Shown in pieces: positions 7,661 through 46,591 of a stretch of 64,000 bases of DNA (position 1 is the stretch's first letter; the number at the start of each line of letters is the position of its first letter). Source of the DNA: Escherichia phage vB-Eco-KMB43. The notes beneath the pieces are model-generated. The model was not told where the DNA came from. It saw only the letters and a list, made by a program, of their open reading frames with translations, and ran no database searches. Made by a program: the position numbers and the translations under genes. The stretch lies in sequence record OR525698.1; one strand, 5' to 3'.

Positions 7661-7954
7661 TTAACCATTAATCTTGTTTTTGACTACAAAGGATCGGAAC
7701 TCATCAAAACCACCGATATAATCACCGTCATAGAAAATCTGCGGCATGGTGGCAATAACTTCTACCCCTGCGCGATCCTGAATGTCGGCAATGATAGAAT
7801 CAATCTTTACCGGACGACCGTTTTCGTCTACACCATCATTAACCGGAATGTAGATGTAAGGGATCTTACGCGATTCACAAAGGCGCTTTGCATTCTGGCA
7901 ATACTTACAGTTGTAACCTTCAAAACCAAAAATTTCTACCATGTTATACCTCAT
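7661..7954 (-). CDS. nrdC: glutaredoxin/thioredoxin (RNR electron donor)
   Basis: CKYCQNAKRL active-site CxxC and C-terminal MPQIFYDGDYIGGFDE resemble T4 NrdC as recalled. Confidence 0.85.
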   Translation of the reverse strand: MRYNMVEIFGFEGYNCKYCQNAKRLCESRKIPYIYIPVNDGVDENGRPVKIDSIIADIQDRAGVEVIATMPQIFYDGDYIGGFDEFRSFVVKNKING

Positions 7955-8699
7955 TCAGTTCTATATCAAGTTCATTTTCAATAATATAGGCATTAACTGC
8001 CCGTGCCGCATCATCTTCTGTGTCAAATCTTCCTATATACACACCGCGAACTTTAGCACCGTAATTACCTTGTTTTGGTACTTTGTAAACGTATCTATGA
8101 CGGGAACTTGCTGCTTTTTGGAGCTTCTTGCCATATTCAGACTTTGCATATTCTATATCATCAATCTCGTTTATACAAGACCTATCACCAAAATGTTTCA
8201 ACGCGGCAAGATTATATGCATACGCCGCGCCGATCTCGGAGGGAAAATATCCTAAATGTATCGACTTCCCATCCAACATTATTGCACCAGTCCAATAACC
8301 TTTATTCTTATTAAACGACACACCTTTATACTTCGAATATGTTTTGCATTTGGTCTTGCTCATATTCATATTATTTTGTTTGCGTGTCGTCTCTCTAAGG
8401 TTTTCAATGCGGCTATTATAACGATCTCGGTCTTTATGATCTATATACTTAGGACAATGACCATGAAACATATGATAGATAACACGGTGCATACGTTCGT
8501 ATCGCTCGCCAGTCCATACAATACGATACCCATCGGGGGTATCACTTCCAGCTAATCCGTTTATAACACCTTTTCGGTGCGGGTGAATCTTCCACCTAAG
8601 AAAACCATCATCATAATAAAACCGTGAATGATATAAATCATATAAACGTTTATCTTCTGGAGTCTTGTGTATAACCTCATATTTTAACATTGGTGACAT
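7944..8699 (-). CDS. free-standing HNH homing endonuclease with two AP2-like DNA-binding domains
   Basis: HNH core (IDHKDRDRYNSRIENLRETTRKQN) plus two YKGVS/YxYKV...GxYxGRF AP2-type repeats. Confidence 0.8.
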   Translation of the reverse strand: MSPMLKYEVIHKTPEDKRLYDLYHSRFYYDDGFLRWKIHPHRKGVINGLAGSDTPDGYRIVWTGERYERMHRVIYHMFHGHCPKYIDHKDRDRYNSRIENLRETTRKQNNMNMSKTKCKTYSKYKGVSFNKNKGYWTGAIMLDGKSIHLGYFPSEIGAAYAYNLAALKHFGDRSCINEIDDIEYAKSEYGKKLQKAASSRHRYVYKVPKQGNYGAKVRGVYIGRFDTEDDAARAVNAYIIENELDIELNEV

Positions 8700-9492
8700 A
8701 AACTTCCTTAGTATCGGATTTTTTACCCCCGCTACGATCTAAACAATATGTTTTATCCAGTTCAACAACAGAAACATCATTACGTTCGATAAAATCGAGC
8801 AAATGGTTGTTAACTTTCCCTTTGTGGTGAGTAACATTGCTTAATCCAAACTTAGCACCGCTAGACATTAATGATTCTATCCACATGTAGAATTTAATCT
8901 CTTCTTCTTCACTCCAGAACTTATTATATTCTGCCGACGTGATCCAATATGGCGGATCAAGGAAAACGAAATCACCTGGCAAGATCTCGATCTCGTCATA
9001 GCGACCAGACGTAAAACTGATTCGACCGTCTTTGTTTTCTTCCTTAAAATTCAGGACACGCTCTACCGCGTTTTCGTTAAAAGTCCGGCGACCAAAATTA
9101 GCATTAAATTCGCCCTTCCGGTTATGGCGGTTAATGTTGCTAAAACTATGCTGAATCAACACAAACAGCGATAGCGGATCTGGATTCTCATTATACTTCT
9201 TACGGAATGCCATGTAAGCGTCTTTATCTTCGCGAGACAAACCATTTTCGGCAATAATCCGCTTGATCGTAGAAACCGGATCAGGACACTCGTCAATGGC
9301 CTTGTAAGCGTCAATTAAGCGGTGATCATAGTCATTAGCCAGCACATCCCCTTCGACGTACAGAGACACGCTCAAGCCGCCACAAAAGGCATCAACAAAG
9401 CGGTTATAGTGCTTAGGGAAATACTTACTAACACCGGGCAATAACTTTTCCTTATTGCCAGTATAGGGAATTAAACCTAATGCTTTCTTCAT
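8677..9492 (-). CDS. dam: DNA adenine methyltransferase (Dam-type, N6-A)
   Basis: YTGNK, FVDAFCGGLSV (SAM site) and DPPY motifs; near-collinear with T4 Dam as recalled. Confidence 0.9.
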   Translation of the reverse strand: MKKALGLIPYTGNKEKLLPGVSKYFPKHYNRFVDAFCGGLSVSLYVEGDVLANDYDHRLIDAYKAIDECPDPVSTIKRIIAENGLSREDKDAYMAFRKKYNENPDPLSLFVLIQHSFSNINRHNRKGEFNANFGRRTFNENAVERVLNFKEENKDGRISFTSGRYDEIEILPGDFVFLDPPYWITSAEYNKFWSEEEEIKFYMWIESLMSSGAKFGLSNVTHHKGKVNNHLLDFIERNDVSVVELDKTYCLDRSGGKKSDTKEVYVTNVKI

Positions 9493-25856: not shown

Positions 25857-26183
25857 TTAGAAAGAAACAGTTTTCAAGAAATCCAGATTTTTAGTACCGA
25901 AAACAGAAAAGTAGTGTTCTCCTTTTTCGGTTTTAGAGAAAGCGATTGTCTTCTCTACATGGTGACGGAAGCCAGACAGACGATCACCCAGGTCAAGGCG
26001 GCAAGCGTAAGTAGTGCCGTTTTCGAAAGTAACCTCGATTTGAGTTTTGTCATATTCGCTTTCATAGGCTTTTGCTGCTGCGTCCTGTGCTTTACGCTCG
26101 AAGTCTTCGAAGTGGAATACTTCGTTTGCGTTAGCGAATACAGAAGATTCAGAGAAGATAACTTTAACAGATACTGGTTTCAT
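25857..26183 (-). CDS. hypothetical protein
   Basis: ORF track; promoter cassette with conserved leader upstream. Confidence 0.55.
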   Translation of the reverse strand: MKPVSVKVIFSESSVFANANEVFHFEDFERKAQDAAAKAYESEYDKTQIEVTFENGTTYACRLDLGDRLSGFRHHVEKTIAFSKTEKGEHYFSVFGTKNLDFLKTVSF

Positions 26184-38267: not shown

Positions 38268-41200
38268 TTAAAGCGCCTAGTGTAACTAGCTTGACAATAG
38301 AAAAATTGTCTGCTAATCAGGCGTATATCACATGGGATGACGTAGGCGAAAACTTCTTTTATTTTGTGGAGTTAGCCGAAACCAGAACACGAGACGGGGA
38401 GATCATCCCCGTCGATGAGTTAAGCTGGGTAAACCTGGGATATACTGCCGACCAAAACTGGTTTGAGGATAAAAACCTTTTTCCAGAATATTATTACAAA
38501 TTTCGTGTAGCAGTAGCCGCAGAAGGATTTGAACAAAGTAAATGGATTGAAACCGAAGAGTTTCAGACATTTAAAACAAACGCATATAATTTTTCTATGA
38601 TGCGAGAGTTCAACCTTGCAAACGAGTTTATAAAGGAAAAATTTACATACGATAATCGAGAGTATGTCAAGTTTAATACCGACCTTATTCAAGCATCATT
38701 GATGAAGGAAGATTTTGTCTTTAGTCCTGAATATGCAAACATGACAAATATCTCAAACTACATTGTAGTTGATGAGAACTTTCATGAAATACAGGATCAC
38801 ATAGAAAAAGTTTGTATTGATATAAACCGCACTATGTTAGCGGAAATGAACGGTGTTTTGTACCTTTTCGAACGGTTCCAGCCGATTGTGAAAGTGTCAA
38901 ATGATAAAGGTCAATCATGGAAAGCATACAAGGCTTTTAATGACCGTGTAGGAAATCCGGTTTCCCGCACATGCGTTTATCAGTCTAAAACCACTACTTA
39001 CGTTTTAGGATATGACCGAATCTTTTACGGACGACAAGCTAGCGATACTCGATGGAGCGCGGACGATGTTCGATTTAGTGATGATACGATCACTTTTGCA
39101 AAGGTTGGTGACGAGAACGATTTAGGCTTTGACGTTGAGGTCTTTGGTGTATTTTCCAGATTAACAGGGGACACCACAAAATACGCCGAAGCTATGGCGT
39201 GCAGTGATGACTATTTGTGGGTTGGTGCTAAAGATGTTATTCGCCGGATTCGTCTTAAGAATACTCCAGTTGATACCGTACAGGGTTCGCCTACGTTTGG
39301 AGAAAAAATATTCGATCCTGATGTTATCCGAGTAACAGGAAATGATAAAGCTGTCATTCAGAAAATGGATGTGATCGACGGTAAATTGCTTGTATTTGTT
39401 ACTGGTGAAGTTAAACAGCGTTATCAAGATCCAACCAAACCAGAAAACGTTGTTCCGTCAGATGATGCGGGTGTATACTTAATAGGGAGTGATGGTCTGT
39501 CTTTTCAGAGAGTATTTGGCAACACTCCGCAGGAAAGGGAATATATTCAGCATGGGTTCAGTAATATGTCAACCAATGGTGATGAGGTGTTCATAAGCCA
39601 TTATAATCATCACTTCGAAAGCATTTTACCTGATCCAGAAACTGCCGAGAAATATGAATTGGGCGAAGCTGTAAAATATTCTCAGGAGCCAACTTATCTA
39701 ACTGATAAGAAAATACATCAAACGACTTTCAGAGCAAGTTATGATGATTTGCGTATTTGGGAATTAGGACCGCAAGCGTATTATAATGAGGCTGATTATA
39801 CATGGATGCGTCGAAACGGTGTTCGTGTATGGATCACAAATGATAATCGCCCGTTGGTTGTTTATCCAGAGGTTATCTATACTCAAGAAGTTGATACTTC
39901 CGGCATTCTTGATAAAAACAGAATTAACCGTGAAGTTTATGATAAAGGGACCGTGACCTGTTATCTTAACAATGTTAAATTTGAAGGATTTAAACAATAT
40001 GCATCCGGTGTAATGTTCCATAAAAACACGGGAGAGATCATAGGATTCTATCAATTTAACTATCGCGTTCGTGATCAGGTTGGTGTATATTGGAAACCTA
40101 CAAATGTAGCATTTGTTGCTGAATTGCAAAATCAGGTTCGAGAGGTTCCCTGGGTTCCGGTTCACTACGATCGAGAACAAGACCCAGATTTGCGACCTTT
40201 ACTGAATAAGATGACACCTGATAGCTTTTTACTTGAGAACGAAAATTTCAGAAAATTCTCTGAATATTATCTGCAATTCTTAAGTGATGGTTCAGGAACA
40301 TATTATAATAAACTAAAAAATCTGATTAAAAACAAATATCCACGCGAGCAAGATGCATATGAGTATCTTTGGTCAGAGATGAACAAACGAAACATCTATG
40401 CAGATAAAAACAAGCGAGATGCGGTCGTAAGATTCTTTGAATCCCGCAAATCAGATTTTTATTCCACTAAGGGCGTGGAGGCTTCTTATAAGTTCTTGTT
40501 TAAGTTACTTTATAATGAAGATGTGGAAATTGAGGTTGAATCACAAGCCGGACTAGAGTATGATATTGTTGTTAGTTCAACGAACATTGACGAGGATATC
40601 GTAGGTCGCACGATTTATACCACGACCGGACGGGCTAACGTGACTTATCTTGAAAGGGAATATGAAGGTGGACGTCTACGCTGGCGAGTAACCATTCATA
40701 ACCTGATCGGGCGGTTCGAAGAAGGTCAAGTGATCAAATCAGAGAAAACAGCGTTTGAAGGGATGATCCTTGTTGGTGTACGTGGTAAAGAGTTGCTGAG
40801 TAGTTCAATCGACTATATCAACCGATCACGAAGCCAATACACCATGAAGATTAAAAGTGCATTGCCAGTTTCGCGCTATGCAAATGATGTAATGCGATTC
40901 GTTCATCCTGTCGGCTTTGGGTTTATCGGTGTTACCCTGCTTACGATGTTCATTAACAGCGGGTTGAGCATGAAGCACACCGAGACTATAATTCAATCTC
41001 TGAAAAATTATAAGTTTGACAGCGGATTGCCTAGCGTGTATCCTGATCGGGTGGCAGACCTTGATGTTGATGGAAATATTAAGATTGACCCACTAACAGG
41101 GAAACCATTATACTTAACGTCACCGACAATTGGCGAAGAGTTCCCTGTTCCTCCTGAATATGATCAGGAGAACAGCGAATTGTTCCACGGACTTAAAGCA

Positions 41201-41350
41201 AGCGAACGAAGATTTGCAATGAGTCCACTGTTTGACCAGTCGGCGGTAACATTCTCTATGTTCCGTGAACTTGTAGATAAAAGGTTGAAGGATAATATAG
41301 GGAATCCACGCGATCCGAAGAATCCGACACAGAGGAAAATTAATGGCTAA
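38264..41350 (+). CDS. 7: baseplate wedge protein
   Basis: 1028 aa ORF in gene 7 position. Confidence 0.85.
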   Translation: MIKAPSVTSLTIEKLSANQAYITWDDVGENFFYFVELAETRTRDGEIIPVDELSWVNLGYTADQNWFEDKNLFPEYYYKFRVAVAAEGFEQSKWIETEEFQTFKTNAYNFSMMREFNLANEFIKEKFTYDNREYVKFNTDLIQASLMKEDFVFSPEYANMTNISNYIVVDENFHEIQDHIEKVCIDINRTMLAEMNGVLYLFERFQPIVKVSNDKGQSWKAYKAFNDRVGNPVSRTCVYQSKTTTYVLGYDRIFYGRQASDTRWSADDVRFSDDTITFAKVGDENDLGFDVEVFGVFSRLTGDTTKYAEAMACSDDYLWVGAKDVIRRIRLKNTPVDTVQGSPTFGEKIFDPDVIRVTGNDKAVIQKMDVIDGKLLVFVTGEVKQRYQDPTKPENVVPSDDAGVYLIGSDGLSFQRVFGNTPQEREYIQHGFSNMSTNGDEVFISHYNHHFESILPDPETAEKYELGEAVKYSQEPTYLTDKKIHQTTFRASYDDLRIWELGPQAYYNEADYTWMRRNGVRVWITNDNRPLVVYPEVIYTQEVDTSGILDKNRINREVYDKGTVTCYLNNVKFEGFKQYASGVMFHKNTGEIIGFYQFNYRVRDQVGVYWKPTNVAFVAELQNQVREVPWVPVHYDREQDPDLRPLLNKMTPDSFLLENENFRKFSEYYLQFLSDGSGTYYNKLKNLIKNKYPREQDAYEYLWSEMNKRNIYADKNKRDAVVRFFESRKSDFYSTKGVEASYKFLFKLLYNEDVEIEVESQAGLEYDIVVSSTNIDEDIVGRTIYTTTGRANVTYLEREYEGGRLRWRVTIHNLIGRFEEGQVIKSEKTAFEGMILVGVRGKELLSSSIDYINRSRSQYTMKIKSALPVSRYANDVMRFVHPVGFGFIGVTLLTMFINSGLSMKHTETIIQSLKNYKFDSGLPSVYPDRVADLDVDGNIKIDPLTGKPLYLTSPTIGEEFPVPPEYDQENSELFHGLKASERRFAMSPLFDQSAVTFSMFRELVDKRLKDNIGNPRDPKNPTQRKING

Positions 41351-42338
41351 TGAAAATAGTGTGATCTATCGCTCAATCATTACTAGCAAATTCAGAACAG
41401 AAAAACTTCTGAACTTCTATAATTCTGTAGGCGATGGAGCAAATCAAATTACAATTTATGGAACGTTTGGACGTTCGGAGCCGTGGTCAGAAAACGAAAA
41501 AGAGGTGGGCTTTGCCCCACCTTATCCGACCGATTCAACGGCTGGTGTTGTTGACATGTGGACCCATATGATGGGGGCGGTTAAGATTAACAAATCACTT
41601 CTTGATGCGGTTATCCCTCGTAAAGATTGGGGTGATACCGGACAGGATAACCCGCGCACGTTCTTTATCAATGACATTGTTGTCGTAAACTCAGCACCAT
41701 ATAACCGTACAGATGTTGGTAGCGGCTGGATGGTTTACCGTGTAACTGATGTTCCTGATCGCGGTTACTGCTCGATTTCAAGCATTGACGCTAAAGTAGA
41801 GTGTTTGAAGTTGGGCGGAAAGTGGACACCTACCCATGAATCAATTGCGCCACCTGTAGGAAAGGGCGATTCTATTGATATGGGTGATGGGTATCGTTGG
41901 GAATATCTGTACACAATTCCGCCTGATGCGGCGATCAACCGTTGCACCAATGAACATATTGTTGTACCGTTCCCCGATGAACTGCGACAAGATCCGGCGC
42001 GTTGGGGCTATGACAATGTGATCACCTGGTATAATGACTATAATCTGCTTTATCGGCTGAAAGTAGTAACTTTGCGTTTTCAGGCTTATATGGACTCTGC
42101 GCAATTCCCAACTACCGCGTTAGTGGGTAATACTGGTTTCCGTCAGTTAAGCATTATCCTTAACCCATTGGAAAAGAAAGCACGCCCTAGCGATCCAGAC
42201 GTTAAAGCGGTTAAATATAAGTACCGACCGCAAGACTTAGAGCCACACTCAGGAGAAATGATCTACATGGAAAACCGACAACCTATCGTTCGGTCATTAG
42301 ACCAAACAGAACTTGTTTCTGTATTGTTTGAGTTCTAA
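41343..42338 (+). CDS. 8: baseplate wedge protein
   Basis: 331 aa in gene 8 position. Confidence 0.85.
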   Translation: MANENSVIYRSIITSKFRTEKLLNFYNSVGDGANQITIYGTFGRSEPWSENEKEVGFAPPYPTDSTAGVVDMWTHMMGAVKINKSLLDAVIPRKDWGDTGQDNPRTFFINDIVVVNSAPYNRTDVGSGWMVYRVTDVPDRGYCSISSIDAKVECLKLGGKWTPTHESIAPPVGKGDSIDMGDGYRWEYLYTIPPDAAINRCTNEHIVVPFPDELRQDPARWGYDNVITWYNDYNLLYRLKVVTLRFQAYMDSAQFPTTALVGNTGFRQLSIILNPLEKKARPSDPDVKAVKYKYRPQDLEPHSGEMIYMENRQPIVRSLDQTELVSVLFEF

Positions 42339-42351
42339 GTGTATGATTTTA

Positions 42352-42380
42352 AAAGCCAATTCGAGAGAGTTGGCTTTTTC
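42352..42380 (+). terminator. rho-independent terminator after gene 8
   Basis: AAAGCCAA-ttcgagagag-TTGGCTTT hairpin followed by TTTTCC. Confidence 0.7.
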
Positions 42381-42391
42381 CATTTTTGGTG

Positions 42392-42419
42392 TTGACAATA
42401 TTATTTGGTAAGGTATAAT
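42392..42419 (+). promoter_or_regulatory. sigma70-type promoter (TTGACA -16- TATAAT) inside the late structural cluster
   Basis: TTGACA at 42392-42397, TATAAT at 42414-42419; GGAGGA RBS and ATG 30 nt downstream. Confidence 0.7.
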
Positions 42420-42448
42420 GCTCACATCTAAACAACGGAGGATAAATT

Positions 42449-42706
42449 ATGGCACGTCGTAAATTTACAGATAATTGTGAAGCAATTCAGGTATCCCCTT
42501 GCGGTTGGTATGTGATCGCGAACGGTGAAAAGATCGGAGAGATCATCGATCATACTCATTCATCACTAGCCGATTACACCGATGAACTATGGGAGGGTAT
42601 CAACTTCATGAATGACACTAAACGATTCAAGACTATCGACGAAGCTATCTATTTTGTGTATAATCCAACTTTCGGTATGTGGGGAACTAGAAAATGGCAC
42701 GCGTAA
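42449..42706 (+). CDS. hypothetical protein (insert ORF 1)
   Basis: 85 aa; GGAGGA RBS; stop overlaps next start. Confidence 0.6.
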   Translation: MARRKFTDNCEAIQVSPCGWYVIANGEKIGEIIDHTHSSLADYTDELWEGINFMNDTKRFKTIDEAIYFVYNPTFGMWGTRKWHA

Positions 42707-43023
42707 ATATTAAACTGCATTATACAATGGGTAAACCAAAACATCCAATGCATAAAGTGTTTTGGGGCTTGCATCTTCAAGAAAAATGGCATGATAACTA
42801 TTGGTTTTGTGACCATGATAAGAAGTGGCATTCTCAAGATGAAGTTAATGCGATGATGGAACATGGTATAAAATTTAATTACTCTAATTATGACCATAGC
42901 ATTACTTGTATTCGAAAATTGAAACGGTTTATTCGAAAGAATCCGCAATTTAAAAACTTTGTGTTCTTTATGTCTCATGTTTATTTGGGGCATAGCGTTA
43001 CCGTAACAGCAAAGGTTAAATAA
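42694..43023 (+). CDS. hypothetical His/aromatic-rich protein (insert ORF 2)
   Basis: 109 aa; translationally coupled (TAATG) to the next gene. Confidence 0.6.
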   Translation: MARVNIKLHYTMGKPKHPMHKVFWGLHLQEKWHDNYWFCDHDKKWHSQDEVNAMMEHGIKFNYSNYDHSITCIRKLKRFIRKNPQFKNFVFFMSHVYLGHSVTVTAKVK

Positions 43024-43862
43024 TGGCACGACTTTCTAAACAAGAGCAAAAATTACACGATCGGGCGATGGAGCTAATCAATTCAGATCGCCCATTGACC
43101 TATGAAGAAAAAGAATTTTGCTATAACAACTATCATGGCGATGGGCTAGGTGGTTCCGGTGCATTCTTTACCCCAGAAGGGCTTGCCTGGGATTTTACCA
43201 TTGATGCACACTGCACCGGAAAAGTATTGGACCTTTGTGCTGGGATCGGTCGTTTATCTTTTTGTATGTTGCATCGCTGTAAGCCAGAAAAGATCGTATG
43301 CGTCGAACTCAATCCAGAATTTGCGAGGATTGGCAAGCGACTATTACCGGAGGCAGAATGGATCACCAGCGATGTATTCGAATTTGAGTCAAACGAGAAA
43401 TTCGATGTTGTAATTAGCAATCCACCTTTCGGGAAAATCAATACAACCGACACAAAGGATGTATTTGAGTACACTGGCGGCGAATTTGAATTTAAGGTTA
43501 TGACATTAGGCCAGAAGTTTGCCGATGTAGGTTATTTTATTGTTCCTACTGGTTCCGCTGGTTTTGCCTATTCCGGTAGACCTTATTATGATGGATCAGT
43601 GAAGTCTAATAAATATCTAAAATGGAGCAAACAAACTGGTTTGGTGACTTATGCCGGATGTGGGATCGATACATCAATCTATCGCGATGAATGGCACAGT
43701 ACCAACGTTTTAACAGAAGTGGTTGAGGTTCGGTATTACGAGAAAGAAGCCGTAGAAGCGCCTAAATCGCGTCCTAACGAACAAATAGAAGAAAGTAAGG
43801 AGATTACCTTACCGGAACAAGAAACAGCGTCTGGGACGCTCTCAGACTTGTTTGACATTTAA
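43023..43862 (+). CDS. class I SAM-dependent amino-methyltransferase-like protein (NPPF motif)
   Basis: Motif I VLDLCAGIGRLS and motif IV VISNPPFGKI about 55 aa apart (gamma-like order); acidic C-terminal tail. Confidence 0.65.
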   Translation: MARLSKQEQKLHDRAMELINSDRPLTYEEKEFCYNNYHGDGLGGSGAFFTPEGLAWDFTIDAHCTGKVLDLCAGIGRLSFCMLHRCKPEKIVCVELNPEFARIGKRLLPEAEWITSDVFEFESNEKFDVVISNPPFGKINTTDTKDVFEYTGGEFEFKVMTLGQKFADVGYFIVPTGSAGFAYSGRPYYDGSVKSNKYLKWSKQTGLVTYAGCGIDTSIYRDEWHSTNVLTEVVEVRYYEKEAVEAPKSRPNEQIEESKEITLPEQETASGTLSDLFDI

Positions 43863-43865
43863 TTA

Positions 43866-43893
43866 TAAGCCGTCCTCGTGGGCGGCTTTTTTG
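43866..43893 (+). terminator. rho-independent terminator after the methyltransferase-like gene
   Basis: AGCCGTCC-tcgtg-GGCGGCT stem followed by T6. Confidence 0.65.
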
Positions 43894-43902
43894 TATGTAT
43901 TT

Positions 43903-43910
43903 TATAAATA
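43903..43910 (+). promoter_or_regulatory. T4-type late promoter motif TATAAATA upstream of gene 9
   Basis: Exact TATAAATA 28 nt upstream of the start. Confidence 0.65.
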
Positions 43911-43937
43911 ATACATCATAACATGAGGAATTAAACA

Positions 43938-44792
43938 ATGGCACAAGTTCCAAAGAAAAGAATAGACACAGGTACGGTCGGCAATCCATCGACTGGCGAT
44001 ATCTTATATGATGGCGGTAATAAAATTAACGATAACTTTGATTCAATATATGACGCATTTGCTGATCAACGTCTAAAAGAGATTGATCATGGTGCTGGTC
44101 GAATGATTATTCATGCCACGGGATACTATCAGAAACACCCACGACAAAGCTATGCAGGATCGGCGGTAGAGATTGGTAGCTTACATGATATTGACACAAC
44201 TCAAGGCGCATTAATAGCAATTCTTCCTAAAGCTAAAGTTGGTGAGGGTGTTGTGTTCATAAATAGTAACGGTAGCTTTTCGGCAACAACACCACTAAAC
44301 ATTAGAACTCAAGCAGGAGATTCTATTAGCGGGTATTCCGGTGACGCGGTAATAACTCAACCTTTCTCAAAAGTCACCGTCTGGTGTACTGCCGTCGAAG
44401 GTAGTAGAGTTACCTGGCGGCTGGGCATCGAAAGTATGTTTACCGACACAACCACACCACTAGATAGGACAGTTAATGTAACTGGAGTTGCAACCAACGT
44501 TGCTATTGCAGCAAAAACAGAATATGTATCAATTAAACTATTAACAACCGCTAGCAATACGACGGGTTCAAAAATGCGCTCAAGCGAAACTCTATTGATG
44601 ATTGATGCCAGAGCCGGAAAAGTTTACGCGACAGAATATGCGGTTTTACAGAAAACAGAAGACGAATTATACACGGTTCGTTATTTCATTGGTTCCGGCG
44701 ATAAAGTATATGCAGAGTATAAGGCTACTGGCGAAAATATTCGTTTAGCAGTTAAAGCCACAGACACTATTAAAATCGGGGTTGCTACATGA
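43938..44792 (+). CDS. 9: baseplate wedge protein / long tail fiber socket
   Basis: 284 aa in gene 9 position. Confidence 0.8.
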   Translation: MAQVPKKRIDTGTVGNPSTGDILYDGGNKINDNFDSIYDAFADQRLKEIDHGAGRMIIHATGYYQKHPRQSYAGSAVEIGSLHDIDTTQGALIAILPKAKVGEGVVFINSNGSFSATTPLNIRTQAGDSISGYSGDAVITQPFSKVTVWCTAVEGSRVTWRLGIESMFTDTTTPLDRTVNVTGVATNVAIAAKTEYVSIKLLTTASNTTGSKMRSSETLLMIDARAGKVYATEYAVLQKTEDELYTVRYFIGSGDKVYAEYKATGENIRLAVKATDTIKIGVAT

Positions 44793-46591
44793 AACAATTA
44801 ATTAATATCGGTAACGTTGTTGATGACGGTACTGGTGATTATCTAAGAAAAGGCGGTCAAAAGATCAACGACAACTTTTCTGAACTTTATACTAAGCTGG
44901 GGGACGGCGATACCCCCCACGCATCCGGTGCATGGAAAACGCATACAGCGCCATTATTAAAGCCTAATTTTGGGGATGCGTGGGCTATCAATACAACAAA
45001 CAACGCGGTGTCGGTAGAGCTTCCTAAAGGTGGAGTTGGTGATTATAACAAGACAATTAAACTTCGTGATGTTTGGCGCTCGTGGGCGTCTCATAACGTA
45101 ACACTTAAGCCAGCACAAGGCGATACAATTAAAGGATCACCAATTGACCGAGAATTGTATAAAGATTTTATGGATGTTGAACTGGTTTATTGTGCGCCTG
45201 GGCGCTGGGAATATATCGAAAACAAGCGAGTTGACACGATCACCACGTCTGACCTAAGCACAGTAGCTAAGGAAGTTTATATTGCCACAGAAGGGCAAAC
45301 AGATTTCCCTAATGTATTTGGTTCTAACACATATAACACTCGAAATGTTGAAGTATATTATCGAGGAAACCTTTTATATTATGGTAAGTCTTTTAGTAAT
45401 GACTCTAACTACGGTTCAATTGGTGAGGATGGATCACTTGTTGAACTTGATGGCAAAAGCATAAAACTTCGTTTTCCTTGTTCGGCTGGGGACACCGTTC
45501 AAATTATTACATACATGGACGGAATTGCATCATTCCGATCTAGTTATATCACACACACAATTAGAGTGTATGATACCGGAATGACAGCACTAGAAACTAT
45601 TCCGGGTGAAGTGTGGGTAGGTGATTTATCGACGAAAAAAGAATTTACCAATGCTGATTTGGGAGTTAGTAAACGTGATATAATTAACCCAAATTCATTT
45701 GAGTTATTAATAAATGGTACTCAAATGATTAAAGCTGGTGATGCTGATCTTCCTTCGTTTGTCTGTGAAGGTGCTGACGGAGAAACCGAAGAGAGTTGCG
45801 CACTTGCTGGCGGTCAGTGGGTACAGTCTGGAGAAGATTATTCACTGGTATTTGATGAGAATAGCATTGTAACAGGGATTAAATTAGCTAAAGCGTTGGA
45901 CAATAGAGATACTATAACAATTCGTTGGTTTAATAACGATATCGGAACTCTATTAGAATGGGATGGTGTCGGCGGAATTAAAGAAAAAGCAGACAAGATT
46001 TATCTCAATAACGAAGACGAAGTTAATTTAACAAAACAAATTGAATATACAGACTTCCAGAATCCTAGTCAGAAAAACACTCGTCCGGCAGAAGAGTATT
46101 CAGGTCGAATTATGGATATATATTCACTGTTTGATATTTTTCATCCGGTCGGCACGATATACGAAAACGCACATAACCCAGCTAACCCAGCGACCTATAT
46201 GGGGTTTGGTATCTGGGTTCGGTATGCGGAAGGAGAATTTCTTGCTGGTTGGTCTTCCGATGCCAGCGACCAGAATTTTGCATTAAACAATAACGATCTT
46301 GATATTCATGGACAACCTACACACACCGCTGGTGGTACTGGTGGTGAAGTTGCCTATCAAATCAAGAAAGATATGATTCCTGAATTACAATCCAGCGATC
46401 GTGTTTTGGTGAAAGACGATACAGGGTCAATTATCATTGGTGGCTGTCAAGTTGATCCTGATGCGGCAGGTCCAGCGTTTACGAAATATAGAGAGGATAT
46501 CGTAAAAGTTAATTCTGGAAATGCCGATCCATCAATGATGGGTATTCTTCCTCCATATCGCACCGTTCATCGCTGGTTAAGGGTAGGTTAA
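44789..46591 (+). CDS. 10: baseplate wedge protein
   Basis: 600 aa in gene 10 position. Confidence 0.8.
   Translation: MKQLINIGNVVDDGTGDYLRKGGQKINDNFSELYTKLGDGDTPHASGAWKTHTAPLLKPNFGDAWAINTTNNAVSVELPKGGVGDYNKTIKLRDVWRSWASHNVTLKPAQGDTIKGSPIDRELYKDFMDVELVYCAPGRWEYIENKRVDTITTSDLSTVAKEVYIATEGQTDFPNVFGSNTYNTRNVEVYYRGNLLYYGKSFSNDSNYGSIGEDGSLVELDGKSIKLRFPCSAGDTVQIITYMDGIASFRSSYITHTIRVYDTGMTALETIPGEVWVGDLSTKKEFTNADLGVSKRDIINPNSFELLINGTQMIKAGDADLPSFVCEGADGETEESCALAGGQWVQSGEDYSLVFDENSIVTGIKLAKALDNRDTITIRWFNNDIGTLLEWDGVGGIKEKADKIYLNNEDEVNLTKQIEYTDFQNPSQKNTRPAEEYSGRIMDIYSLFDIFHPVGTIYENAHNPANPATYMGFGIWVRYAEGEFLAGWSSDASDQNFALNNNDLDIHGQPTHTAGGTGGEVAYQIKKDMIPELQSSDRVLVKDDTGSIIIGGCQVDPDAAGPAFTKYREDIVKVNSGNADPSMMGILPPYRTVHRWLRVG

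Follow-up and report, generated by a model that had tools for sequence, protein, structure and literature searches.

A gene cassette between baseplate genes 8 and 9 of Krischvirus phages encodes a predicted DNA methyltransferase with a putative sliding-clamp-binding tail

Escherichia phage vB-Eco-KMB43 (sequence record OR525698.1) belongs to Krischvirus, the RB49-like or "pseudo-T-even" phages. A stretch of 64,000 nucleotides of its DNA, here called the window, contains a 1.6-kb cassette (42340-43935) inserted between baseplate gene 8 and baseplate gene 9. The third of its three open reading frames (ORFs), ORF3, is predicted to encode a methyltransferase dependent on S-adenosylmethionine (SAM), and ends in a short peptide that may bind gp45, the sliding clamp of T4-type phages. 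The features of the cassette are as follows.

42351-42388, plus strand: intrinsic terminator after gene 8 from a terminator scan (hairpin 42351-42378, with a 12-bp stem and a 4-nt loop, then a T-run)
42392-42419, plus strand: predicted sigma70-type (phage early) promoter, TTGACA-16-TATAAT, with no mismatch to the 12 consensus positions
42449-42706, plus strand: ORF1, 85 residues (phrog_16603), with a GGAGGA ribosome-binding site at 42437-42442
42694-43023, plus strand: ORF2, 109 residues (phrog_12630), overlapping ORF1 by 13 nt
43023-43862, plus strand: ORF3, 279 residues, the third ORF of the cassette
43023-43757, plus strand: predicted catalytic core of ORF3, residues 1-245, adenine-N6-type SAM methyltransferase with motifs X, I and IV
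43158-43175, plus strand: motif X of ORF3, GAFFTP (residues 46-51)
43227-43250, plus strand: motif I of ORF3, LDLCAGIG (LCAGIG, residues 71-76)
43419-43430, plus strand: motif IV of ORF3, NPPF (residues 133-136)
43758-43832, plus strand: acidic, proline-containing linker of ORF3, residues 246-270, with low model confidence
43833-43862, plus strand: C-terminal peptide GTLSDLFDI of ORF3 and stop codon, putative gp45 sliding-clamp epitope (C-terminal segment as peptide: ETASGTLSDLFDI)
43867-43894, plus strand: GC-rich intrinsic terminator closing the cassette (hairpin 43867-43888, with a 9-bp stem containing six GC pairs, then TTTTTT)
43903-43910, plus strand: T4-type late promoter TATAAATA for gene 9, read from the sequence

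The initial annotation had pointed to motif I (VLDLCAGIGRLS) and motif IV (VISNPPFGKI) in ORF3, and both are present. GAFFTP, LCAGIG and NPPF were found to be invariant among 25 homologs, and their X-I-IV order is that of the gamma class of N6-adenine methyltransferases. Structure prediction, proposed at the outset as a check on the fold, returned a Rossmann amino-methyltransferase: the AlphaFold2 (AF2) model is confident for residues 1-245 (predicted template modelling score 0.80; predicted local distance difference test, pLDDT, above 90 in the core) and shows the class I Rossmann methyltransferase fold. Among the profiles, DNA enzymes scored best, with PADLOC Mad2 (5e-17) first and Type II methyltransferases next, and the PHROG matches are to DNA methyltransferase and DarB-like families. 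Profiles of RNA or protein methyltransferases matched at 1e-9 or weaker, and those of PrmC and RsmC in particular were weak and far below the curated NCBIfam cutoffs. ORF3 reached the cutoff of no curated NCBIfam family and gave no match to PF02086 (MethyltransfD12) in the Pfam search. In RB49, a weak methyltransferase-domain match had been reported for RB49ORF143w (Nolan et al., 2006; PMC1524935). ORF3 is thus probably an orphan SAM-dependent methyltransferase reduced to a minimal core, with a fold and motifs that point to adenine-N6 chemistry.

Beyond the core, pLDDT drops below 50 for residues 246-279 of the model, in which the terminal DLF forms a short helical turn. The linker is hypervariable in length and sequence among homologs and is absent from chromosomal copies. 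ORF3 ends in ...SGTLSDLFDI, the DNA polymerase gp43 of RB49 in ...ASLTDLFDI and that of T4 in ...ASLDFLFG, so that TLSDLFDI of ORF3 and SLTDLFDI of RB49 gp43 are identical at six of eight residues. A six-frame scan of the window and of 91 kb of RB49 found the ending DLFDI only in gp43 and ORF3. The window, GEC-3S, RB49, TB34, the P0001 cluster and P0002 all retain the peptide; the last, a metagenomic homolog 68% identical to ORF3, ends in ...SSGTLTDLFDI. The linkers of P0002 and P0004 are wholly different, with the terminal motif kept. Compared at the nucleotide level, the codons of the peptide are identical to the 3' end of gene 43 at 21 of 27 positions and the differences are synonymous, indicating that the peptide has been maintained by selection; an origin by recent copying of that end of gene 43, which was considered, is not supported. 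The tail of a further homolog, P0003 (...TLDFVDFSEI), is T4-like.

The C-terminal peptide of the T4 and RB69 polymerases docks onto the gp45 sliding clamp. Three gp45 ligands, gp43, gp33 and gp55, have C-terminal epitopes that can replace one another and that compete for the same sites, and the gp55 epitope follows a divergent linker of variable length (PMC2988020). Two sequence traits of gp45 ligands described in that work were found in ORF3, namely a hydrophobic-acidic extreme C-terminus like that of the cognate gp43 and a divergent, flexible linker of variable length. At the level of sequence, then, ORF3 is built like a gp45 ligand, and its terminal peptide is near-identical to that of its own phage's polymerase. 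The gene for gp45 lies outside the window. Of the targets first suggested for ORF3, which were DNA, host RNA and protein, this polymerase-type and putatively clamp-binding tail narrows the choice to DNA.

How widespread is such a tail among the relatives of ORF3? The family comprises 730 clusters at 50% identity (E ≤1e-3) and includes 289 phage records. Tails were surveyed in 138 representatives of 50%-identity clusters with a complete core, and a tail of at least 9 residues was present in 92. The strict beta-clamp motif Q[LIVMF]x[LIVMF][FL] was found in the last 14 residues of 24 of these 92 tails, against a shuffled mean of 0.4 and a maximum of 4 in 2000 shuffles, which is an enrichment of about 60-fold; it matched no 14-mer of the cores. 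The pattern Qx(1-3)LF was found in 33 of the 92 tails (0.6 expected), and in 18 of the tails carrying either motif it stands exactly at the C-terminus. Examples are ...GPQLSLFA, ...GQLDLFGG, ...AAQLALF and ...KQLTLF, and QLSLF is the beta-clamp-binding motif of Hda (PMC7049699). These homologs therefore show the consensus pentapeptide in a disordered terminus that marks beta-clamp clients; the window's ORF3 lacks the initial Q. The genomic context was readable for two members with the beta-clamp motif (the contig of a third, P0176, is too short): P0118 (...QQLDLFGEAA) sits in a lambdoid cI-cro-O-P-...-NinB module, and P0213 (...QLSLFA) adjoins ParA/ParB and relaxase genes on a plasmid-like contig. 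In these cases, the type of motif appears to match the replisome that the element would use. The comparative evidence argues strongly for a tail that acts as a clamp tether and for a substrate that is duplex DNA.

Other members of the family differ in their ends or in their location. Enterobacterial chromosomal copies (236-242 residues) end a few residues past the last beta-strand and are tail-less. GAFFTP, LCAGIG, NPPFG and some 50 other positions are invariant in tailed and tail-less members, indicating that the enzyme activity of ORF3 is under selection. In RB16 (Pseudotevenvirus), Matisse (Slopekvirus), Pantoea phage Phynn and the contig L020, the gene lies among the replication genes 41, 61 and 43. 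In Citrobacter freundii chromosomes (L003-L005, 8001-8717), tail-less homologs of 238 residues were observed at the edge of an island of small ORFs with an HNH gene and an integrase or transposase fragment, beside bssR, yliI, gstB and dacC; this homolog is one protein found on hundreds of Citrobacter contigs.

The transcription signals of the cassette point to early expression. The terminator after gene 8 had originally been placed at 42352-42380 and was recovered by the scan with the hairpin and T-run listed above. The sigma70-type promoter proposed at 42392-42419 also stands: it is the sole perfect promoter match within 41000-45000, and its -35 and -10 hexamers are invariant, with a variable spacer, in the window, GEC-3S, RB49 and TB34. 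Promoter-like sites in 41000-45000 number 11, against 11.2 in shuffled sequence, so the case for the promoter rests on the perfection and conservation of this site and not on the count. Equivalent promoters precede a lone methyltransferase gene (65-68% protein identity) in two uncultured Krischvirus-like contigs, L019 and L029. The GEC-3S record annotates the promoter along with both terminators, and both terminators are likewise annotated in TB34 and predicted in RB49, the first of them by TransTerm. For RB49, the supplements of Nolan et al. (2006; PMC1524935) give a predicted early promoter, Pe:73830 (73830-73879, plus strand), and predicted terminators at 73808-73827 and 75311-75328, which correspond to the promoter and terminators of the cassette. 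Consensus hexamers upstream of the ORFs and bounding terminators are the marks of a T4-type early (sigma70) unit, here predicted independently in RB49. The suggested self-contained transcription unit, insulated by terminators and with a sigma70-type promoter of its own within the late baseplate operon, was thus upheld. The second terminator and the late promoter, described in the initial annotation as restoring gene 9 expression, are both present as well, with one correction. The 63-bp gap between genes 8 and 9 of T4 already holds a terminator hairpin, at the place equivalent to the terminator after gene 8, followed by TATAAATA, and the same element is found in L019 and L029; the late promoter of gene 9 is therefore ancestral and not borne by the cassette.

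The best explanation of these features, and one that we regard as reasonably probable, is an early-expressed DNA methyltransferase that would be tethered to the replication clamp through its gp43-like tail. Host sigma70 RNA polymerase would start at the predicted promoter soon after infection and produce one short, terminator-bounded mRNA for ORF1, ORF2 and ORF3; given such early transcription, ORF3 would be present when gp45 is loaded. At forks and nicks, the protein would attach to gp45 trimers already loaded on phage DNA and move along with them. Riding both the clamps at the fork and those left on the lagging strand would allow a minimal enzyme to scan nascent phage DNA and methylate it, and progeny genomes, which have ordinary cytosine in Krischvirus, would be efficiently methylated before packaging. 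The most likely purpose would be evasion of host restriction or of other DNA-targeting defences in the next host. The parts of this reading differ in strength: binding of the tail to gp45 and a DNA substrate are strongly suggested, early transcription of the cassette by host RNA polymerase is likely, and protection from restriction or DNA-sensing defences is a tentative suggestion. Krischvirus and Pseudotevenvirus have ordinary cytosine (PMC6563267; PMC12115623), and the tailed version of the methyltransferase occurs in T4-like genera of this kind.

Several observations weigh against a clamp-tethered DNA methyltransferase. No target-recognition domain or specificity subunit is visible in ORF3, which consists only of the core of about 245 residues and the disordered tail. 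RB49 DNA is cut by DraI, HpaII and NheI (PMC4041780), so any methylation by ORF3 is site-limited and not blanket. Phages SAP and TB34 are reported to differ in an unexplained cytosine modification (PMC13390438), and the cassette is 100% identical in the two (2285-bp region); the cassette was consequently rejected as the cause of that difference. Tail-less members make up one third of the representatives and occur also in phages CC2, phiM12 and GAP32, so the enzyme can do without tethering, and its core functions independently of a tail. The methyltransferases of RB16, Matisse, Phynn and L020 end in ...(D/N)(L/N)FTFxIE, unlike the gp43 (...SLNDLFGDW or ...SLSDLFDF), gp33 (...TLDDFM) and gp55 (...TLEMFL) of the same clade. 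This ending, being hydrophobic and acidic, may represent a variant gp45 ligand or may serve another partner. Exact mimicry of the polymerase tail is confined to the Krischvirus lineage, and strict co-variation of methyltransferase and polymerase tails in all T4-like clades, which was considered, was borne out only in part, being exact in Krischvirus and replaced by FTFxIE in the RB43/Slopekvirus/Phynn clade.

The resemblance to gp43 could instead be coincidental or serve another partner, leaving ORF3 as a free, diffusible orphan DNA methyltransferase comparable to T4 Dam with another specificity. The motif is short, with two of the eight residues differing, many members of the family are tail-less, the tails of the RB43 clade depart from those of their own polymerases, and the baseplate protein gp8 also ends in ...VLFEF by chance. 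Chance accounts less readily for a match that lies at the extreme C-terminus of both proteins and, in ORF3, after a disordered linker, or for a peptide that has been kept both through synonymous codon differences and in P0002 with its different linker. The enrichment of an unrelated beta-clamp motif at the same position (24 of 92 tails against 0.4) is very hard to explain without clamp binding, and this alternative is judged unlikely.

An RNA substrate has a still smaller chance. ORF3 would then be a METTL5-, Erm- or KsgA-like adenine-N6 methyltransferase that acts on host rRNA or tRNA or on phage RNA during early takeover, with a tail that serves some other interaction. The rRNA m6A enzymes METTL5 and PH1948 (COG2263) are indeed the closest solved folds for the ORF3 core and share the NPPF motif; the sequence similarity is marginal (3.7e-4), the GAFFTP N-terminal extension does not align as it does with the DNA enzymes, METTL5 needs TRMT112, and these RNA enzymes have no clamp tail. 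Only a protein acting on duplex DNA would have a use for a clamp-binding peptide, and the tail of ORF3 equals a polymerase tail, in a family whose tails are so strongly enriched in beta-clamp motifs. Moreover, the DNA methyltransferase profiles outrank those of RNA or protein methyltransferases, all RNA methyltransferase models of NCBIfam are far from their cutoffs, and the gene sits among replication genes in other T4-like genera.

A comparably slight chance is given to a tail that is a clamp ligand with a mainly regulatory role. The protein would compete for gp45 against gp43, gp33 and gp55, or for beta against host proteins, and so modulate replication or the timing of late transcription, methylation being secondary or lost. 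That the tails of gp45 ligands can be exchanged and bind competitively at shared sites (PMC2988020) speaks for such a role, as do the disturbance of replication by overproduced clamp binders (DNMT1, Pol IV) independently of catalysis (bioRxiv 10.1101/354589) and the strong expression predicted from the early promoter. Yet the catalytic motifs are invariant in tailed and tail-less members alike, and a mere competitor would need no enzyme of 245 residues. Finally, a protein glutamine methyltransferase of the PrmC/HemK type, as several GenBank records label ORF3, is highly improbable, because its best NCBIfam match, PrmC (1.7e-9, residues 64-137 only), reaches 37.5 bits against an equivalog cutoff of 199.1, which leaves the label "release factor glutamine methyltransferase" unsupported although NPPF/NPPY is a motif common to PrmC.

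How does a clamp-tethered methyltransferase compare with known systems? Like the gp45 epitopes of gp43, gp33 and gp55, ORF3 presents a hydrophobic-acidic peptide at the extreme C-terminus of a variable, flexible linker. It differs from them in that the cargo would be a DNA methyltransferase instead of a polymerase or a transcription factor, and in that binding is putative; no methyltransferase was found among the gp45 ligands reported in the literature searched. The same literature yielded no report of a methyltransferase among beta-clamp clients. Proteins with the beta-clamp motif QL[SD]LF (among them Hda, Pol II and Pol IV) are matched by the many ORF3 homologs that end in QLSLF, QLDLF, QLALF or QLTLF, whereas the window's ORF3 carries a phage gp45-type peptide instead. 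The closest functional parallel is DNMT1, a DNA methyltransferase that is tethered to the sliding clamp PCNA by a PIP motif and couples methylation to replication (PMC9690074), as is putatively the case for ORF3. DNMT1 maintains C5-cytosine methylation and has many regulatory domains besides its N-terminal PIP box, whereas ORF3 would be a minimal adenine-N6 enzyme whose viral clamp peptide stands at the C-terminus; the two are not related by descent. In comparison with M.TaqI, HsdM, Eco57I-type enzymes and Mad2, ORF3 is half the size and is found without a target-recognition domain, a specificity subunit, or partner restriction or defence genes. In the case of Mad2, the match covers only part of the profile (residues 35-139 of ORF3 against 259-370 of 492), and the neighbours are baseplate genes, not those of a MADS system.

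The cassette as an annotated object is already known, from the GEC-3S annotation and from the predictions made for RB49 in 2006 (PMC1524935). What is new is the clamp-type tail that ORF3 appears to carry. The full-text literature searched, outside of which most subscription journals lay, yielded no account of a sliding clamp that tethers a methyltransferase in prokaryotes or viruses, and the only clamp-coupled DNA methyltransferase found there is the eukaryotic DNMT1-PCNA system. Beyond this phage, the tails suggest, with somewhat better than even confidence, that orphan adenine DNA methyltransferases of mobile elements form a widespread family whose members are linked to the replication fork through an exchangeable clamp peptide at the C-terminus. 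That peptide would be QLxLF in a lambdoid phage and a plasmid-like element, both of which would use the host replisome, and a copy of the gp43 tail in Krischvirus, which brings a replisome of its own.

If the tether proves real, ORF3 would represent the first prokaryotic or viral clamp-coupled DNA methylation and an independently arisen functional analogue of DNMT1-PCNA, and gp45 would be a platform for DNA modification besides replication and late transcription. Sliding clamps serve as tool-belts for polymerases and repair enzymes and in T4 late transcription; epigenetic marking would join these roles, in phages and in plasmids. Such coupling would explain how fast-replicating mobile DNA could be fully methylated before packaging or transfer, and it bears on the restriction survival of the T4-like phages with ordinary cytosine (Krischvirus, Pseudotevenvirus and Slopekvirus). 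Phages of these three genera are in use for phage therapy. The identity of the tail could also act as a sequence rule predicting the clamp on which a mobile element relies, and a small, minimal enzyme with a portable tether might become a tool for replication-coupled DNA labelling. A clamp tether would likely be surprising to specialists in T4 replication, and it is directly testable.

The flanking genes identify the site of the cassette as follows.

41343-42338, plus strand: gene 8, baseplate wedge, upstream flank (Pfam Phage-Gp8, 7e-143; PHROG baseplate wedge subunit)
43938-44792, plus strand: gene 9, baseplate, downstream flank (Pfam T4_gp9_10_N, 6e-41)

Genes 8 and 9 had been described as adjacent in T4, and they are, with the 63-bp gap noted above; the cassette is accordingly an insertion relative to T4, as had been proposed. 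The comparison of the gene 8-9 junction supports this insertion and at the same time removes any peculiarity to this phage, since the cassette was found in 58 of the 58 Krischvirus records related to the window. The region is 99.9% identical to that of Escherichia phage FL04 and 92-98% identical to that of 57 other Krischvirus genomes. The cassette is thus fixed in the genus and is no novelty of this phage. The C-terminus of gp8 itself (...VSVLFEF, 42317-42338) was observed to fit the loose hydrophobic-acidic pattern, which for a baseplate protein is probably a coincidence.

ORF1 and ORF2 accompany the methyltransferase in the window. All three proteins start with MAR, and the overlaps of 13 nt (ORF1/ORF2) and 1 nt (ORF2/ORF3) agree with the translational coupling that had been described. 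The statement that ORF1 and ORF2 have no recognisable motifs likewise held, neither having a family match in Pfam, NCBIfam or PADLOC. With one cluster for ORF1 and five for ORF2 among 5.8 billion proteins, they are near-ORFans; their GC content (0.34-0.39) is slightly lower than that of the flanks, which is not decisive, and the AF2 model of ORF2 is unusable (pLDDT 55). The idea that the three ORFs form one module failed. In rV5-like Vequintavirus phages without the methyltransferase, ORF1 and ORF2 lie next to each other and overlap (about 69% identity), and the methyltransferase stands by itself between gp8 and gp9 in L019 (10001-10768) and L029 (1159-2016), which keep the layout of terminator, promoter, terminator and TATAAATA. 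In L019, gp8 is 88% identical and the methyltransferase only 65%, indicating much faster divergence of the methyltransferase than of the structural genes around it. A frameshift in the sequenced RB49 (L002, AY343333, 1949-2195) splits ORF1 into ORF140w and ORF141w, and ORF1 is therefore dispensable for laboratory growth. On these three grounds (the pair without the methyltransferase, the methyltransferase alone and the RB49 frameshift), a role of ORF1 and ORF2 as specificity or accessory subunits was rejected. We conclude that they are small early proteins added to a pre-existing methyltransferase cassette, or lost in other lineages.

ORF2 exists as two alleles in Krischvirus: 19 records show at least 95% identity, and some 40 others about 72%. 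The alleles differ only at residues ~14-70, and in its N-terminal half the window's allele is the closer one to a Vequintavirus homolog (HMD-6). This pattern suggests mosaic recombination or diversifying selection.

The presence of a Dam enzyme elsewhere in this phage, stated in the initial annotation, was verified.

8677-9492, minus strand: T4-type Dam, D12-class N6-adenine DNA methyltransferase (PF02086, 1.3e-29)

T4 Dam resembles the ORF3 inferred here in being a phage orphan adenine DNA methyltransferase expressed before packaging, and Krischvirus has both Dam and ORF3. The two differ in type, Dam belonging to PF02086 and ORF3 being MTS/Eco57I-like, and Dam lies at another locus and has no clamp-type tail. 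The dam gene of RB49 is annotated at the syntenic place, and its product ends in ...EVYVTNVD, again with no clamp-type tail. In the window, an ORF resembling HNH_3 and AP2 homing endonucleases (7944-8699, minus strand) overlaps the 3' end of dam; because RB49 has nrdC at that position, it looks like a strain-specific mobile endonuclease insertion.

A second C-terminus of possible interest for gp45 was observed elsewhere in the window. An ORF of 108 residues (25857-26183, minus strand; Pfam LPD25, 3e-14; phrog_14916) ends in ...GTKNLDFLKTVSF, with a T4 gp33/gp55-type 'LDFL' clamp motif six residues before the C-terminus, and may encode another gp45 ligand.

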